Assembly (NCBI GenBank): GCA_964648335.1
Contig: CAZYLZ010000007.1
Location: 1,034 to 65,033 of the forward strand
Direction: 5' to 3'
Length of the DNA stretch: 64,000 bases
Origin: an uncultured Candidatus Saccharibacteria bacterium
Lineage (GTDB): Bacteria > Patescibacteriota > Minisyncoccia > Phycocordibacterales > UBA2100
Of the stretch, positions 4,379 to 10,483 are shown in pieces. The position numbers were made by a program, and so were the translations under genes. The first letter of the stretch is position 1. Each line of letters begins with the position of its first letter. The notes beneath the pieces were generated by a model. That model did not search any database. It was not told the origin of the DNA and worked only from the letters and a program-made list of their open reading frames with translations.

Positions 4379-4918
4379 TTAGATCTTGCGGCTGCGCAGA
4401 TACATCGCGTATTCGTACGCCTGCTTGATCATGTCGAACTTCGTATTACTTCCGAGTCCGTCGGGAGCCGTATCGGGGTGATACTGGCGTGCCTTGCATC
4501 GGTAGGCCTCCTTGATTGTCTTCTGCGAATCGGCGGCCGTAATGCCGAGGATGGCGTGACAGTGCGTTTCTGCGTAGTTCTGCGGAGCACGCTTTTTGGG
4601 CTCGGGCCGCAGATGCCGTGTTCGCGCATCGACTTCGTCTTCGAACTGTTTGAAGTCGCGCATAACGGCCTCGGCTTCTTTTGCCTTGGCTGCCTCATCG
4701 GGGCTCACGTAACCCGGGCGAAACCGCGGCGACCCGCGCGTACCGCCAAGGTTCGGTGCTGTCCGTCTGCTATACCTAGGCTGATTTGCCTTAATAAAGC
4801 GCCAACACAGCGAGAAGAAGAGCCATGAGCAGAACATCGGCAAGACCACCCAGATATTGTTCTTGAACACGCTCATGAGGAGCATGAACACAATCATGTT
4901 TACGAGGAAGTATCCCAT
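4379..4918 (-). CDS. DjlA-like membrane protein with a C-terminal J domain (copy 1)
   Basis: N-terminal TM helices. The C-terminus reads ILGITAADSQKTIKEAYRCKARQYHPDTAPDG..FDMIKQAYEYAM, a J domain with the HPD motif. Confidence 0.7.
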   Translation of the reverse strand: MGYFLVNMIVFMLLMSVFKNNIWVVLPMFCSWLFFSLCWRFIKANQPRYSRRTAPNLGGTRGSPRFRPGYVSPDEAAKAKEAEAVMRDFKQFEDEVDARTRHLRPEPKKRAPQNYAETHCHAILGITAADSQKTIKEAYRCKARQYHPDTAPDGLGSNTKFDMIKQAYEYAMYLRSRKI

Positions 4919-5075: not shown

Positions 5076-5591
5076 CTAGGGCTTTGCTTTATGGCGCATT
5101 TCGAGGTATTCGTACGCCCTGATCACCTCGGTAAACTTGGTGGCGTCGCCTTTGCCATCTTTGGCGACGTCGGGGTGGTACTGGCGCACATTTCTGCGAT
5201 ACGCCTTTTGGATCTCCTTCCACGACGCATCGCGCCGGACCTCTAGTGTGGCATACGGATCAAACTGGGGGCGTACCTGATCTGCAGGGCGCCACCCATT
5301 TTGCCCGTAATAATTCGCGTCTCTTCGGTGCCGCTGCAGCATTTCGCGGAACATCTCGATTCGCTCGGCCTCCCGCGCTGCCGCATCTTTGGTCTGCTGC
5401 GTCTTTGTGTCGGGCGTCTTATGAGCCATGCCCACCAAGACGACCACGACCAAGAACGCCGAGAATGAGCTGAACATCATCCAGAGCGCCATAGCCGAGA
5501 GAAAGCCGATGCCCAAGAAAGAAACGAGCATCCAGGCGATCAGAGCATTGCAGAGAAGTGCGATTGCGACAATTTTTTCGAACCAAAACAT
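5076..5591 (-). CDS. DjlA-like membrane protein with a C-terminal J domain (copy 2, paralog)
   Basis: The C-terminus IQKAYRRNVRQYHPDVAKDGKGDATKFTEVIRAYEYL is a J domain with HPD. The N-terminus has TM helices. Same architecture as 4379..4918. Confidence 0.7.
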   Translation of the reverse strand: MFWFEKIVAIALLCNALIAWMLVSFLGIGFLSAMALWMMFSSFSAFLVVVVLVGMAHKTPDTKTQQTKDAAAREAERIEMFREMLQRHRRDANYYGQNGWRPADQVRPQFDPYATLEVRRDASWKEIQKAYRRNVRQYHPDVAKDGKGDATKFTEVIRAYEYLEMRHKAKP

Positions 5592-5968: not shown

Positions 5969-7013
5969 CTACAGCGCGACGATCTTTTCCCACGGAAACT
6001 CATCGCGGCCAAAGTGTCCGTACGCTGCCGTTGCCGCAAAGATAGGACGGCGCAACCCGAGCCGCTCGATTATTGCTTGCGGTCGAAAGTCAAACTTCTT
6101 CTCTACATCGGTTATCCGCTCGCCATGCTCGTTAACCGCCTCGACCATCACGGGCTCTGCGCGCCCAATGGCATACGCCACCGACACGAGCGCACGCTCT
6201 GCGTATCCGTTTGCCACCAAGTTCTTTGCCGCAAAGCGTGCCATGTATGCGGCCGATCTATCTACCTTGGTCGCATCTTTTCCGCTAAAGGCGCCACCAC
6301 CATGCGGAAACAGTCCGCCATAGGTATCGACCATGAGTTTGCGACCAGTAAGTCCGGCATCGGCTGCAAAGCCACCTTCGACAAACCGCCCCGTCGGGTT
6401 TACCAAGAGTTCTATCCGGCTAACATCGCCCAACACCGGCTCGAACAGGTGAGTAACGAGCGCACGATGTATCTCGTCTTGCGAGGTATCTTCTGCATGC
6501 TGGGTACTTACGAGTGCGGTCGCAACGACTCCGTCTTTGATGGTTACCTGCGTCTTGCCGTCGGGGCGCAACCACTCAAGTGTTTTAGCAGTGCGGAGCT
6601 CCTGGAGCTTTTTGGCAAGCGCATGTGCGAGCACCACACCCTGCGGCAGGTACTGCGGCGTCTCGTTGGTGGCATAGCCGTACATGATGCCCTGATCGCC
6701 CGCACCACCCGTATCTACTCCCATCGCAATGTCGCCCGATTGCGCTGCAATATGCTCGAGTATCGTAAGGGCATCGTCGTAGCCGATGCGTCTATATACA
6801 CCTTCCGCTATCGCCTTGTAATCGACCGTTGCGTTGGTTTTTACCTCGCCACCTAATACGAGTATGCCGTGGCTGCCAAAGGATTCGACCGCAACGCGAG
6901 TACGGGTCTTGGGTCAAGCAGGCGTCGAGAATTGCGTCCGAGATTTGGTCGCACACTTTGTCGGGGTGGCCTGCGGTTACCGATTCTGTCGAGTAGGTGC
7001 TAAATGTCTGCAT
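5969..7013 (-). pseudogene. metK: S-adenosylmethionine synthetase (MetK) interrupted by a frameshift near 6895-6905
   Basis: The N-terminal ORF (6792..7013) reads [39 protein letters not shown], then leaves frame. The neighbouring frame continues [42 protein letters not shown]... into the C-terminal ORF (5969..6724) with the motif GGGAFSGKD. Loss or gain of 1-2 nt at ..gacccgtactcgcgttgcggtc.. restores one 348-aa MetK. Confidence 0.8.
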
Positions 7014-7024
7014 ATAAAGGGTCC

Positions 7025-7185
7025 GCGCACGGATAATAAATAAACTCCTTCTCAGGAGCGTGCGCGTTTATCTTCCCCCGAGAGGGGTTTGGATGGGGCA
7101 CCTTCTAGAGACCGTAGTCGCTATGGGTTGCCGGCGGTTCGTAGAGCCAAAACTCTCCCCGCACTCTTGATACATATTTCCGACC
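7025..7185 (-). promoter_or_regulatory. SAM-I (S-box) riboswitch in the metK 5' leader
   Basis: The minus-strand RNA reads AUCAAGAGUGCGGGGAGAGUUUUGGCUCUACGAACCGCCGGCAACC...GGUGCC...CCCCUCUCGGGGGAAGAUAAAC. This matches the S-box consensus (AUCAAGAGAGG.GGAGGGA.UGGCCC.AUGAA.CCCGGCAACC ... GGUGCC ... AGAUGAG). A downstream helix CGCGCACG/CGUGCGCG encloses CUCCU..AGGAG, an SD-sequestering structure, just before the metK AUG. Confidence 0.6.
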
Positions 7186-7195
7186 TAATTCTAGA
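7186..7195. repeat. 10-bp direct repeat TAATTCTAGA (left copy) at the edge of the low-GC island
   Basis: An identical 10-mer recurs at 10567..10576, just past the other end of the low-GC block. Confidence 0.35.
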
Positions 7196-7310
7196 GTACA
7201 AGAAGTTCATGTAACAAACAAGATGCGCGTCAAAATAAAAGGCGATTGCTGATCTGGTGGTGATCTTCCGTGCATTTCCCAAAAACGAAGATGTATGGGA
7301 CTATTCATTC

Positions 7311-7658
7311 ATGAAAAGTCTTGAAGAACTAACGCGGGAAATAGTGGCGTTCAGAGACGCTCGTGATTGGAAGCAATTCCATAACCCGAAGGACCTGGCT
7401 ATTTCGTTGGTCTTGGAAGCAACAGAAGTGCTTGAACATTTCCAGTGGAAGAATACAGAAGAAATGTCTACCCATGTCCAGGCAAATAAAACAGATATTG
7501 GCGAAGAACTTGCAGATACCTTGTATTGGATAATCCTTATGTCGAACGATCTTGGTATAGATATTCTCGAGGCACTTGAGCGTAAGATGATTAAAAATAG
7601 CGTTAAGTATCCGGTAGAAAAAGCAAAAGGGAAGCATACCAAGTACAGCAATTTATAG
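7311..7658 (+). CDS. MazG-like nucleotide pyrophosphohydrolase (all-alpha NTP-PPase)
   Basis: LEELTREIVAFRDARDWKQFHNPKDLAISLVLEATEVLEHFQWK..EELADTLYWIILMS is the MazG/YpjD-type EExxE/D signature. GC is about 42%, versus about 60% for the surrounding genome. Confidence 0.7.
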   Translation: MKSLEELTREIVAFRDARDWKQFHNPKDLAISLVLEATEVLEHFQWKNTEEMSTHVQANKTDIGEELADTLYWIILMSNDLGIDILEALERKMIKNSVKYPVEKAKGKHTKYSNL

Positions 7659-7659
7659 C

Positions 7660-9675
7660 ATGAGCTCCATAAAGACTTTTTCCTTTGATACGAATGGCTT
7701 CGACGAAATAAAAAAGTATCACTTTGGGCGAAACTGGCCCGTTGTCTATGTCCTCGAGAATGCAAACGAGATGTATATCGGCGAGAGTACGAGTGCCTAC
7801 TATCGCTGCAAGCAGCACTTCGAAAATCCTGTTCGCAAGCGACTTAAACATGCACACGTAATAACCGACGATGAGTACAATAAGTCCGCGATTCTCGACA
7901 TTGAGTCGTGGTTAATTCAATACATGGCAGCAGAGGGCACTGTTGTGCTCCAGAATGGCAATAAGGGACTTAGAAATCATAATTATTATCAAAAGGAAAA
8001 GTACGAGGCAAAATTTGAGGTGATTTGGGAAGAGCTGATACGAATGTCGTTGGTTAAAAAAACTTTGCTCGAAATCAGGAACTCTGACTTGTTCAAGTTT
8101 TCGCCTTATAAGGCGCTAAACGATGAACAATTTCTCTTCGTCAAGAAATTGTTTAAAGACATAGCAGCAGGCACGGCATCAACGTACATAGTGCAGGGTT
8201 CTGCCGGAACCGGTAAAACGGTACTCGCGTCATTCTTGATTAAATATCTGCGTGATCAAAAAGAAACAGCGCACCTCAGAGTTGGGCTTGTAATTGGAAT
8301 GTCGTCACTGCGTCGGACCATGCAAAAGGTTTTTGCACAGACGCCTGGCCTTAAGGCAAATATGGTACTTGGACCAAATGATGTGGTCAAAGAGAAATAC
8401 GATATTTTGATAGTCGATGAGGCACATCGCCTAAAGCGTCGTAAAAATCTTGGGGCAGCATTTAAGGCATTTGATGATGTCAATCGAAAACTTGGATTTT
8501 CGAAGGAAAGTAATCAGCTCGATTGGATACTTAAATCCTCTAAGCAACAGATCTTTTTTTATGACCACGCACAACGGGTCATGCCAGCTGACATCGATCC
8601 TGAAGTATTTGCGGAATTGCCTGCACAACGATATGTGCTAGCTACGCAAATGCGAGTACAAGCCGGGGCCGAATATATCGAAGCGATACACAATATTTTA
8701 TCTAATGGTTCCGTAAAAGGAGTCTCAGTACAAGACTATGATTTTCGTATCATCAATGACTTTGAAACACTCCATACTCTAGTTAAAGAAAAAGATGCCG
8801 AATACGGTCTTGGCAGAATTGTGGCTGGTTATGCGTGGCCATGGGTTTCAAATCCGGATCGAAATAAAAATCCGGCAGCGTACGATATCGAGCTCGATAA
8901 CTACAGAATGAAGTGGAATTCTGTTGCGCAGGATTGGGTAAATTCTCCCAACGCAATTAACGAAGTAGGCTGCATTCATACAATTCAAGGCTATGGCTTA
9001 AATTATGTGGGCGTCGTCATTGGCCCCGAGGTAAAGTTCAATCCTGAAACAAAACAGCTCGAAATAGATTCCGATCATTACTACGATAAAAACGGCTACA
9101 CTGGTATAGACGAAAACGAACTGCGCTACTGCATTCTTAACATATATAAAACGCTCCTTACACGCGGAATTTCAGGAACCTATGTATATATCGTCGATGC
9201 GCATCTTAGGAATAGATTCAAAGATGTCTTTGGCGAGAATACTGTCGTTAAGAAGGGCGGTCCGATACTGTCGCCTCTCAAAGTTTCGACCGTAAGAGTA
9301 CCGTTTGTAGGATCAGCTCCGTGTGGCAACCCTCTTTTCGGTGAAGAAAATCGGGAAGGGTACATAGAAGTAGATAAAACTAAAATAAAGCCAGGGTTTA
9401 AGTACTTTGTATTACGTGCCGAAGGAGATTCCATGAACAAAGCTGGGATCTTAGACGGAGACCTGGTGCTTTGTAGGCAACAACTCAAGGCCGATACCGG
9501 TGATAAGGTAGTGGCACTTCTGGGTGATAACGTAACCATCAAAGAGTACGGTCCGCGTGAAAACGGCGTTCGTTTACTTTTGCCACGAAGTACCAACAAA
9601 ACACATCAAGCGATAACGCCGGAAGAAGGTGCCACGGTGCAGGGCATCGTTCAGGAAGTTCTGGTGAAAGAATAA
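7660..9675 (+). CDS. Three-domain fusion: N-terminal GIY-YIG nuclease, DUF2075-type P-loop/DEAH ATPase, C-terminal LexA/UmuD-like S24 autopeptidase
   Basis: GIY-YIG at aa ~25-60: VVYVLENANEMYIGESTSAYYRCKQHFEN. ATPase: Walker A GSAGTGKT (aa 180-187) and DEAH at ILIVDEAHRL (aa 249-258), plus the conserved DUF2075 segments GYAWPW and TLLTRG. C-terminus (aa ~545-645): VPFVGSAPCGNPLFGEEN..LRAEGDSMNKAGILDGDLVL..GDKVVALLGDNVTIKEYG..VRLLLP aligns motif-for-motif with LexA/UmuD. The Cys555-Gly556 scissile bond is at nt 9322..9327, the Ser591 codon at 9430..9432 and the Lys628 codon at 9541..9543. Low GC. Confidence 0.75.
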   Translation: MSSIKTFSFDTNGFDEIKKYHFGRNWPVVYVLENANEMYIGESTSAYYRCKQHFENPVRKRLKHAHVITDDEYNKSAILDIESWLIQYMAAEGTVVLQNGNKGLRNHNYYQKEKYEAKFEVIWEELIRMSLVKKTLLEIRNSDLFKFSPYKALNDEQFLFVKKLFKDIAAGTASTYIVQGSAGTGKTVLASFLIKYLRDQKETAHLRVGLVIGMSSLRRTMQKVFAQTPGLKANMVLGPNDVVKEKYDILIVDEAHRLKRRKNLGAAFKAFDDVNRKLGFSKESNQLDWILKSSKQQIFFYDHAQRVMPADIDPEVFAELPAQRYVLATQMRVQAGAEYIEAIHNILSNGSVKGVSVQDYDFRIINDFETLHTLVKEKDAEYGLGRIVAGYAWPWVSNPDRNKNPAAYDIELDNYRMKWNSVAQDWVNSPNAINEVGCIHTIQGYGLNYVGVVIGPEVKFNPETKQLEIDSDHYYDKNGYTGIDENELRYCILNIYKTLLTRGISGTYVYIVDAHLRNRFKDVFGENTVVKKGGPILSPLKVSTVRVPFVGSAPCGNPLFGEENREGYIEVDKTKIKPGFKYFVLRAEGDSMNKAGILDGDLVLCRQQLKADTGDKVVALLGDNVTIKEYGPRENGVRLLLPRSTNKTHQAITPEEGATVQGIVQEVLVKE

Positions 9676-9811
9676 GAGCCGCTCGAAATATCTGTGTACG
9701 TACTCCTTATCCAACGAAATTAGCTGAATGTGGATTGTGTCGAGGGATAGTAAACAGGCACCCATTGATTGATTAGCGAAATCACTGCAATAAGGGCAAA
9801 GCAAAACGACA

Positions 9812-10483
9812 TCAGGTACCGTTAAACATATAACCCTCGTTAGGGAAAAGTTCCTCGATCATTTTTTCGAGTTTTGCGCCATCGATCATTTCGATGCCGA
9901 CCCGCGTGCCGTCCACGATTGCCTCTTTGCTATACGATCCCGTGGTCACAAATATGCCGCGTTTGGTTCCATGCAAGACAAACGAGCCCAAGAATTCACG
10001 AATTTCGTTTGATCCCACCGATCCTGCATAGCGCTTTACCTGAACCGCAGTGATTTCGCCCTTCTTGGTAAGGAGAATATCGATTCCTTTGTCATTACTG
10101 CGTCGTGTTACTTCTACTTCGTATCCTTGGTGAGCAAAAAGCCTCGAGATATGGTGCTCGAACTTAAACGGGTCCATGTCGCGAAACACCGACACAACGC
10201 GTTGAATACCCAACTCTTGTGCCTCGGTGTGCCAGGCATTCGATTCGTCGATCTTTCCCTTAACAAATCGATACGTGATAACTCCGGCGTATCCAAGACA
10301 AGCCAAAGCTCCAAGGGTAAGAATAGTTTGCCAATAGCCCGCACCGACGTCGATCAGGGATCGTACAATCGGAGCACCAGCTGCGATCAAAAGTACTGCC
10401 CCGACCGCAAGCTCGATGCTGTTGTTCCGTCTTGTCCTGCGCCTGCGTCGTGCCATATATGAGTGTTCTACCGCGATTTCCAT
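9812..10483 (-). CDS. Membrane-anchored restriction endonuclease, Mrr-like catalytic domain
   Basis: N-terminal TM helices. The C-terminus FEHHISRLFAHQGYEVEVTRRSNDKGIDILLTKKGEITAVQVKRYAGSVGSNEIREFLG..GIFVTTGSYSKEA is the Mrr_cat (PD-(D/E)xK) pattern. Confidence 0.65.
   Translation of the reverse strand: MEIAVEHSYMARRRRRTRRNNSIELAVGAVLLIAAGAPIVRSLIDVGAGYWQTILTLGALACLGYAGVITYRFVKGKIDESNAWHTEAQELGIQRVVSVFRDMDPFKFEHHISRLFAHQGYEVEVTRRSNDKGIDILLTKKGEITAVQVKRYAGSVGSNEIREFLGSFVLHGTKRGIFVTTGSYSKEAIVDGTRVGIEMIDGAKLEKMIEELFPNEGYMFNGT

Follow-up and report, generated by a model that had tools for sequence, protein, structure and literature searches.

A widespread nuclease-helicase family of Patescibacteria with an optional LexA-type S24 domain and a MazG-like operon partner

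The Nhi protein of Staphylococcus epidermidis and the Nhi-like proteins, in which a nuclease is joined to a DUF2075 (PF09848) domain, are validated defence proteins (Millman et al., 2022). Nhi responds to phage single-stranded DNA-binding protein (SSB) or to replication complexes. Here we describe a two-gene cassette of related design, found in 64,000 nucleotides of DNA from an uncultured Candidatus Saccharibacteria bacterium (contig CAZYLZ010000007.1; this whole stretch is called the window). Its main open reading frame (ORF) encodes a GIY-YIG nuclease, a DUF2075 helicase and a LexA-type S24 peptidase domain in one chain, directly behind a gene for a MazG-like nucleoside triphosphate (NTP) pyrophosphatase. 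As in Nhi and the Nhi-like proteins, an N-terminal nuclease and a DUF2075 helicase/ATPase share one polypeptide and the genes lie in defence-type neighbourhoods; unlike in Nhi, the nuclease is of the GIY-YIG type, the partner is a DCTPP1-like MazG protein and the C-terminus is a LexA-type S24 domain, a domain that the texts consulted on Nhi and Nhi-like proteins do not report. We consider it most likely that the two genes form a horizontally mobile anti-phage or anti-foreign-DNA module, Nhi-like in design. That the module is a defence effector which responds to RecA filaments on single-stranded DNA (ssDNA; RecA*) and is licensed by self-cleavage is the reading we favour, tentatively and at somewhat less than an even chance.

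The Nhi model of PADLOC matches residues 145-333 of the protein (E 2e-12; model positions 176-330 of 470), and as only about a third of the model is covered the protein was rejected as an Nhi orthologue. Further partial PADLOC matches were to AbiO (2e-11) and to the GIY-YIG candidate PDC-S14; PADLOC v2 has no dedicated model for the cassette, and full-text literature searches found no description of GIY-YIG, DUF2075 and S24 together, nor of an operon of MazG and DUF2075. An earlier note on this DNA, made from its letters alone, had held that the architecture is not among the described defence systems, and these searches agree with it. Each domain is of a known family and nuclease plus DUF2075 is a known defence architecture; it is the combination of a LexA C-terminal domain on a nuclease-helicase with a DCTPP1-like partner that appears to be undescribed. 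The cassette is laid out as follows, with amino acids abbreviated to aa and superfamily 1B to SF1B.

7660-9675, plus strand: main ORF, 671 aa, running by its domain matches from GIY-YIG nuclease through DUF2075/SF1B helicase and linker to LexA-type S24 peptidase
7660-8049, plus strand: GIY-YIG nuclease domain (about aa 1-130), assigned from invariant catalytic residues and modelled topology
7747-7749 (Y30), 7774-7782 (Y39-I-G41), 7804-7806 (R49), 7816-7818 (H53), 7903-7905 (E82) and 7954-7956 (N99), plus strand: GIY-YIG catalytic codons
8182-9198, plus strand: DUF2075 / Schlafen group-3 SF1B helicase-ATPase core (aa 175-513), assigned from PF09848
8197-8220, plus strand: Walker A motif, GSAGTGKT
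8416-8427, plus strand: Walker B motif, DEAH
9235-9294, plus strand: linker between helicase and S24 (aa 526-545), poorly conserved and predicted to be disordered
9295-9663, plus strand: LexA/UmuD-type S24 autoproteolytic domain (aa 546-668), assigned from PF00717 and the LexA alignment
9322-9327 (Cys555-Gly556, predicted scissile bond), 9430-9432 (Ser591, predicted nucleophile) and 9541-9543 (Lys628, predicted general base), plus strand: S24 cleavage apparatus
7311-7658, plus strand: MazG-like (DCTPP1/RS21-C6-like) all-alpha NTP pyrophosphatase, 115 aa, assigned from PF12643

The main ORF is a single unbroken frame of 671 codons, and its protein was recovered identically, with the same neighbours, in four independent samples (two SRA runs and two metagenomes of the Joint Genome Institute, JGI). 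Among 5.8 billion proteins searched there are more than 120 full-length homologues, with identities of 55-61%, and every one of them has both S24 and DUF2075. An assembly chimera or erroneous gene fusion is ruled out by the identical ORF in the four independent assemblies, and further by the recurrence of the architecture in these homologues and in 43 loci. The earlier note's view of the three segments as one polypeptide rather than separate genes is thereby upheld, and the metagenome search for the same fusion that it proposed has been carried out with this result. The homologues are annotated merely as ‘DUF2075 domain-containing’, and JGI's automatic names pair ‘DUF2075 / LexA’. In an alignment of 120 of them the mean column identity is about 69%, and the full-length AlphaFold model of the window's protein has a predicted local distance difference test score (pLDDT) of 81. 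The representative of its 90%-identity cluster, P0001, has Gly in place of Val at residue 453 (‘NYVGV[G/V]IGPE’), a difference that indicates micro-variation among environmental copies.

With one genome scanned for each GTDB species, relatives turned up in at least 587 of them, overwhelmingly among metagenome-assembled genomes of Patescibacteria, or candidate phyla radiation (CPR), and the window's own host is a patescibacterium. Beyond its own 90%-identity cluster, the PurA protein of this host reaches at most 62% identity to any match, and the matches that carry names are from Patescibacteria group, Kaiserbacteria, Kerfeldbacteria and Pacebacteria. Other hosts of the family among the matches listed include Clostridium, Holdemania and some Bacteroidota and Gammaproteobacteria. 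Far from being a one-off, the fusion thus forms a family that is widespread in Patescibacteria, a point that the earlier note had overlooked.

Self-cleavage of S24 domains is textbook knowledge for repressors (LexA, lambda CI) and for UmuD, and the C-terminal domain of the main ORF aligns residue by residue with this class. PF00717 (Peptidase_S24) matches residues 548-664 with 68.8 bits (cut-off 23.3; E 4.2e-19) and aligns from position 1 to 115 of its 116, and a phmmer search against the PDB sets it in register with E. coli LexA, such that C555-G556 falls on A84-G85, S591 on S119 and K628 on K156; Cys24-Gly25 of UmuD we take to be the counterpart of Cys555-Gly556. Foldseek matches the domain to LexA of T. 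maritima (3k2z; E 2e-7; template modelling score on the target, TM(target), 0.50; 28% identity). The alignment to LexA and UmuD drawn in the earlier note thus holds by the profile search and structure prediction that it had proposed as checks of the S24 fold; its residue numbering for the domain is exact, and the codon coordinates were verified.

The order of cargo, linker and S24 is also that of LexA, although LexA carries a winged-helix/helix-turn-helix DNA-binding domain where the cargo here is an enzyme of about 530 aa. The protein was rejected as a LexA repressor proper: TIGR00498 scores below its cut-off (E 8e-22; 77.9 bits against 110.95) over model positions 79-199 only, and no LexA_DNA_bind (winged-helix) match was found in the main ORF with Pfam. 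It was likewise rejected as UmuD proper, since NF007621 is below its cut-off (E 2e-13; 50.6 bits against 110) and the domain is part of a large fusion with 545 aa N-terminal to it. Both scores fall short since the protein has no more of LexA than its C-terminal half. Among 1.84 billion representatives, the S24 relatives nearest to it outside the family measure 200-215 aa, carry the S24 domain at about residues 75-205 and show 40-51% identity; the one LexA-length relative that was checked has the LexA DNA-binding domain, and others are named LexA by their sources. With this degree of identity to ordinary LexA proteins, that the domain cleaves itself in the manner of LexA is a sound inference from sequence. 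The cleavage loop of LexA belongs to the C-terminal domain itself, so that intramolecular cleavage should not depend on the cargo.

All 120 close homologues retain Cys-Gly, Ser591 and Lys628, and all 43 S24-bearing proteins of the locus set (42 loci plus the window) retain Cys-Gly, the GDSM motif and the Lys. Among the homologues (loci L004-L083) there are two S24 subtypes, the first reading ...VGSAPCGxPLLGE...NVTIK and the second ...ESVGCGELMFAD...DATIK, in which the scissile bond sits in the context VGSAPCG or ESVGCG, respectively. To judge from this conservation, the apparatus is intact and under strong purifying selection. S24 domains dimerise, and one could imagine that here the domain is a non-cleaving module for dimerisation or RecA docking that retains its catalytic residues only through recent capture, which its identity of up to about 50% to LexA C-terminal domains could reflect. 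The family stands at 43-60% identity, yet Cys-Gly, Ser and Lys are invariant in every member, and they are so in two subtypes with differing surroundings. The retention of Cys-Gly in both divergent subtypes argues for selection on the scissile bond, which a role in dimerisation alone would not require, and we regard the non-cleaving module as very improbable indeed.

The helicase core is assigned from PF09848 (SLFN-g3_helicase/DUF2075), which matches residues 175-513 from model position 3 to 354 of 354 (E 1.3e-64; 219 bits against a cut-off of 24). G183-T-G-K186 of the Walker A motif and D253, E254 and H256 of the Walker B motif are invariant in the 120 homologues, and the P-loop/DEAH ATPase of DUF2075/Schlafen type seen in the earlier note is borne out. 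The model shows an SF1B fold of two RecA lobes, with pLDDT mostly above 85, and Foldseek ranks RecD2 (2.5e-11) and SLFN11 (1e-9) ahead of RecBCD-D, Upf1, Pif1 and Dda, with SLFN14 also matched. The group-3 Schlafen proteins (human SLFN11, SLFN5 and SLFN14) have a helicase core in the same Pfam family; at the level of sequence they are no more than about 11% identical, the main ORF is without the Schlafen N-terminal RNase (AlbA-like) domain, and nuclease, regulator and kingdom differ. SLFN11 is recruited to ssDNA at stressed replication forks and kills damaged cells, a role that may serve as a conceptual parallel to a RecA*-responsive DUF2075 protein. Between helicase and S24, residues 528-542 have pLDDT below 50 and are little conserved in the 120-sequence alignment.

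The N-terminal domain is the weakest of the three domain calls. Pfam PF01541 (GIY-YIG) reaches only E 0.006 and 17.3 bits with the window's protein, below the cut-off of 22.6, although precomputed PF01541 matches are present in many homologues, and a family profile against the PDB gives marginal matches to T4 EndoII (0.03), I-TevI (0.14) and UvrC (0.16). Y30, Y39-x-G41, R49, E82 and N99 are nevertheless invariant in the 120 homologues and H53 is present in 119, all in the canonical order and spacing; the spacing is similar to that of Y19, Y29, R39, E76 and N88 of UvrC. The model of the N-terminus has the beta-beta-alpha-beta-alpha GIY-YIG fold (pLDDT 91). With its catalytic residues invariant across the family, the assignment as a GIY-YIG nuclease stands despite the sub-threshold Pfam score: of what the earlier note had proposed, residues and fold are corroborated and the profile match falls short of the gathering score. 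Fold and catalytic constellation are shared with the N-domain of UvrC, R.Eco29kI, T4 EndoII and PD-T4-3, from all of which the domain differs in being fused to a helicase and S24. PD-T4-3, a structural neighbour, is described in its PDB entry as a GIY-YIG restriction enzyme specific for 5-hydroxymethylcytosine (5hmC).

A single nucleotide separates the stop codon of the MazG-like gene from the start codon, ATG, of the main ORF. A mechanical reading starts the gene at GTG 7257; ATG 7311 gives 115 aa, the modal length of the family, and is on that ground taken as the true start. PF12643 matches at E 1.3e-17 (64.3 bits against a cut-off of 27), and PDB matches are to an archaeal pyrophosphatase (4qgp, 1e-19) and to DCTPP1 (6sqw and 2a3q, mammalian DCTPP1/RS21-C6, 9e-17). 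An RDW..FH motif is conserved, and so, in 81 MazG-like sequences, are the acidic, metal-binding motifs E..E..E and EE..D. With the house-cleaning NTP pyrophosphatases of the DCTPP1/RS21-C6 and MazG-like kind the partner shares the Pfam family and these acidic motifs, and it differs from them as a stand-alone protein of 115 aa whose translation is coupled to that of a nuclease-helicase. In about 80 of 83 loci the MazG-like ORF ends 1-10 nt upstream of the nuclease-helicase on the same strand, which establishes a conserved two-gene operon. The MazG-like gene is an obligate operon partner, beyond the mere neighbour that it had been in the earlier note.

The DNA around the operon stands out in composition, and a third gene lies within the same island:

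7180-10300, no strand assigned: low-GC (guanine plus cytosine) island of three genes, 0.38-0.50 GC against 0.56
9812-10483, minus strand: Mrr-type (type IV restriction-like) PD-(D/E)XK nuclease (Pfam Mrr_cat, E 6e-30)

GC rises from 0.41 in the MazG-like gene through 0.44 in the main ORF to 0.50 in the Mrr-like gene, and is 0.56 in the rest of the window; per-gene GC and Pfam thus confirm the low-GC island with MazG-like and Mrr-like neighbours that had been noticed before. Its left edge abuts the S-adenosylmethionine (SAM) riboswitch of metK. No direct repeats or insertion scars were found flanking the island, and no tRNA near it. Promoter and terminator scans gave counts at the level of shuffled controls.

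Neighbourhoods at other loci vary. No conserved third gene or synteny was found, the immediate neighbours forming small unrelated clusters, and the 148 immediate neighbours include Fic/SoFic (7), NYN (4), NucS/YhcG PD-(D/E)XK (4), MrcB_N of McrB type (4), Mrr (3) and a second DUF2075 protein (3), together with AbiEii, PemK, RhuM, HNH and YgjP (2 each). The defence-type context claimed in the earlier note is in keeping with the low-GC island, with the adjacent Mrr gene and, in other genomes, with changing neighbours among which genes for restriction, toxin-antitoxin systems and Fic proteins are frequent. A search of 2.9 million viral contigs yielded just two distant relatives, at 26-28% identity, which rules out a phage-borne gene. 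The low-GC island, the variable and defence-rich neighbours and the near-absence from viruses together point to a mobile accessory cassette of defence-island type and not to a core repair operon.

A housekeeping role in repair or at replication forks has nevertheless to be weighed at this point. The MazG-like protein would clean the dNTP pool, the GIY-YIG helicase would incise or unwind stalled forks or damaged DNA, and S24 would recruit the enzyme to RecA filaments and time its action like UmuD, all within a Patescibacteria SOS network; a LexA-controlled damage network has reportedly been found in these bacteria. The DCTPP1 homology of the partner, the LexA-type S24 domain and the UvrC-like nuclease would suit such a role, as would a helicase fold common to SLFN11, which acts at stressed forks, and the presence of the family in so many species, mostly Patescibacteria with reduced genomes, while viral contigs nearly lack it. 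It fits poorly with a patchy distribution in a low-GC island and without conserved synteny, with neighbours that serve restriction or encode toxin-antitoxin and Fic proteins instead of acting in repair, and with the repeated gain and loss of S24 described below. Nor were GAAC-N4-GTTC or CTGT-N8-ACAG boxes, palindromes of the LexA-box kind, found upstream of the operon in any of 76 loci, although the LexA motif of Patescibacteria may differ. On this balance we think a repair module improbable.

The S24 domain is optional. At about half of the loci the protein is 520-540 aa long and ends just past the helicase, and no S24 remnant was found downstream of the gene at those loci. In a neighbour-joining tree of the shared core, a rough one without support values, the forms with and without S24 are interspersed, which together with the abundance of the shorter form identifies S24 as an optional regulatory add-on. 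The two S24 subtypes also spread regardless of the core tree (L012, of subtype 2, is sister to L004, of subtype 1), pointing to domain swapping or independent captures. As far as the sequences tell, S24 has been gained, lost or swapped repeatedly, and its cleavage apparatus has been kept whenever the domain is present.

According to the mechanism that we favour, the product of the first gene would hydrolyse dCTP or 5-modified dCTP-type nucleotides, and that of the second would translocate on DNA as an ATP-driven SF1B helicase while its GIY-YIG domain, a strand-nicking nuclease, cuts. The second protein can be pictured as a LexA in which the winged-helix domain has been swapped for a nuclease-helicase of some 530 aa, so that cargo, flexible linker, cleavage loop and the Ser591/Lys628 pair would follow one another as in the repressor. 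DNA damage, or phage replication and recombination, would give rise to ssDNA-RecA filaments, on which S24 would take up its cleavable conformation and cut its own chain at Cys555-Gly556, leaving the nuclease-helicase (about 63 kDa) free of an S24 stub (about 13 kDa) that presumably forms dimers. Cleavage would then license or re-target the enzyme, as it does in UmuD, whose site is also Cys-Gly. Activation is favoured by the precedent of UmuD, by the UmuD-like Cys-Gly site and by the large number of defences that replication intermediates set off. Modified cytosine as a target is hinted at by the DCTPP1-like partner together with the 5hmC-specific PD-T4-3 among the structural neighbours of the nuclease; a role against phages with modified cytosine is purely speculative.

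The opposite outcome, in which cleavage inactivates the enzyme as it does LexA, would be nearly as likely. In a fuller version, S24 would dimerise the enzyme, two GIY-YIG sites being needed for a double-strand cut, and as RecA* rises self-cleavage of the same cassette would monomerise the nuclease-helicase and inactivate or destabilise it, sparing the repair intermediates of the host. Most S24 proteins, LexA and lambda CI among them, are inactivated by cleavage, and the domain here is closest to LexA proper and has LexA's layout of cargo, linker and S24. GIY-YIG restriction enzymes such as Eco29kI, a structural match of the nuclease domain, work as oligomers with a single active site in each domain. 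The viability of S24-minus orthologues would also suit an optional safety device, as it implies that the enzyme is not an intrinsically lethal toxin in need of a catch. Phage infection too yields RecA*, however, so that an off-switch would take the defence out of action at the moment of need, and the Cys-Gly site is the one found in UmuD, a protein activated by cleavage. In this fuller version we consider inactivation unlikely, and we retain licensing by cleavage as the working interpretation.

Several observations weigh against a RecA*-licensed defence effector all the same. Forms with and without S24 are common and interspersed, so that S24 can be no indispensable safety catch on a toxic enzyme; the core enzyme works and is tolerated without the switch, which makes a toxic effector restrained by S24 less credible. 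The S24 domain reaches a pLDDT of only 45-77 in the full-length model, a moderate confidence. No RecA gene, LexA or second S24 was found in the 64-kb window. The families listed above make up about one fifth of the 148 neighbours, a figure from raw counts without a background set. The presence of the family in many Patescibacteria lineages with reduced genomes could speak for a function in repair instead. Finally, the activities of the enzymes, their triggering by RecA*, what cleavage leads to and the role in defence are all matters that we infer.

The idea carries known principles further and does not overturn them. If it is true, an S24 switch on a nuclease-helicase extends autoproteolysis to the direct control of a DNA-cutting enzyme, and defence research gains a system with a defined and easily tested trigger (RecA*-ssDNA), for which natural orthologues with and without S24 provide ready-made comparisons. 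The pairing with MazG suggests that editing of the nucleotide pool is coupled to DNA cleavage, possibly aimed at phages with modified cytosine, and the family occurs chiefly in Patescibacteria, a group in which immunity and DNA-damage biology have been little explored. The most far-reaching version, in which this is the first LexA-type RecA*-stimulated autoproteolysis to act directly on an immune or DNA-degrading enzyme, where the known targets are transcription factors or a polymerase subunit, paired with a modified-dCTP pyrophosphatase, and a major unrecognised defence module of Patescibacteria (CPR), we regard as doubtful.

Other proteins outside the window also end in a LexA-type S24 domain. 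P0409 (630 aa) joins it to a MutH/Sau3AI-like nuclease, P0339 to a region with a weak MutH match, P0382 to a MOV-10/Upf1-like beta-barrel and P0333 to a 250-aa N-terminus of unknown type. These fusions suggest a broader class of S24-gated DNA enzymes and, should the proposed mechanism be right, the MutH-like and helicase fusions with S24 would mark a wider class of S24-gated DNA effectors.

The Mrr-type gene of the island has PADLOC matches to PDC-S02, mREase_IV and the ZorD nuclease, and its protein begins with a basic, hydrophobic segment of about 75 aa that resembles a membrane anchor. Similarly organised Mrr-like proteins adjoin the cassette in loci L010 and L052, and the one in L074 clusters with them, but their identity to the window's protein is only 30-32%. 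Mrr was rejected as a component of the system, since such distant neighbours are confined to a few other loci, two when judged by similarity to the Mrr protein of the window and three by clustering of neighbours. In L005, L040 and L083 a second, unrelated DUF2075 protein of about 657 aa, of PADLOC type PDC-S23 or PDC-S41, adjoins the cassette.

To the left of the island, metK (SAM synthetase; 5969-7176, minus strand) lies behind a SAM-I riboswitch (7065-7176, minus strand, 48 bits) and is seemingly frameshifted. The frame of its N-domain ends in ‘...LTQDPYSR’ and the remainder, ‘VAVESFGS...GVDTGGAGDQG...’, continues in another frame; a truncated call of 251 aa recurs in the independent assemblies L084 and L085, and L086 has a call for the N+M fragment. 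A pseudogene, variation between strains or recoding could each account for the break. Further left, at 4379-4918 and 5076-5591 (minus strand), two small adjacent paralogues (179 and 171 aa) each join a hydrophobic N-terminus to a DnaJ (J) domain at the C-terminus, a pair that is unusual for a reduced genome.

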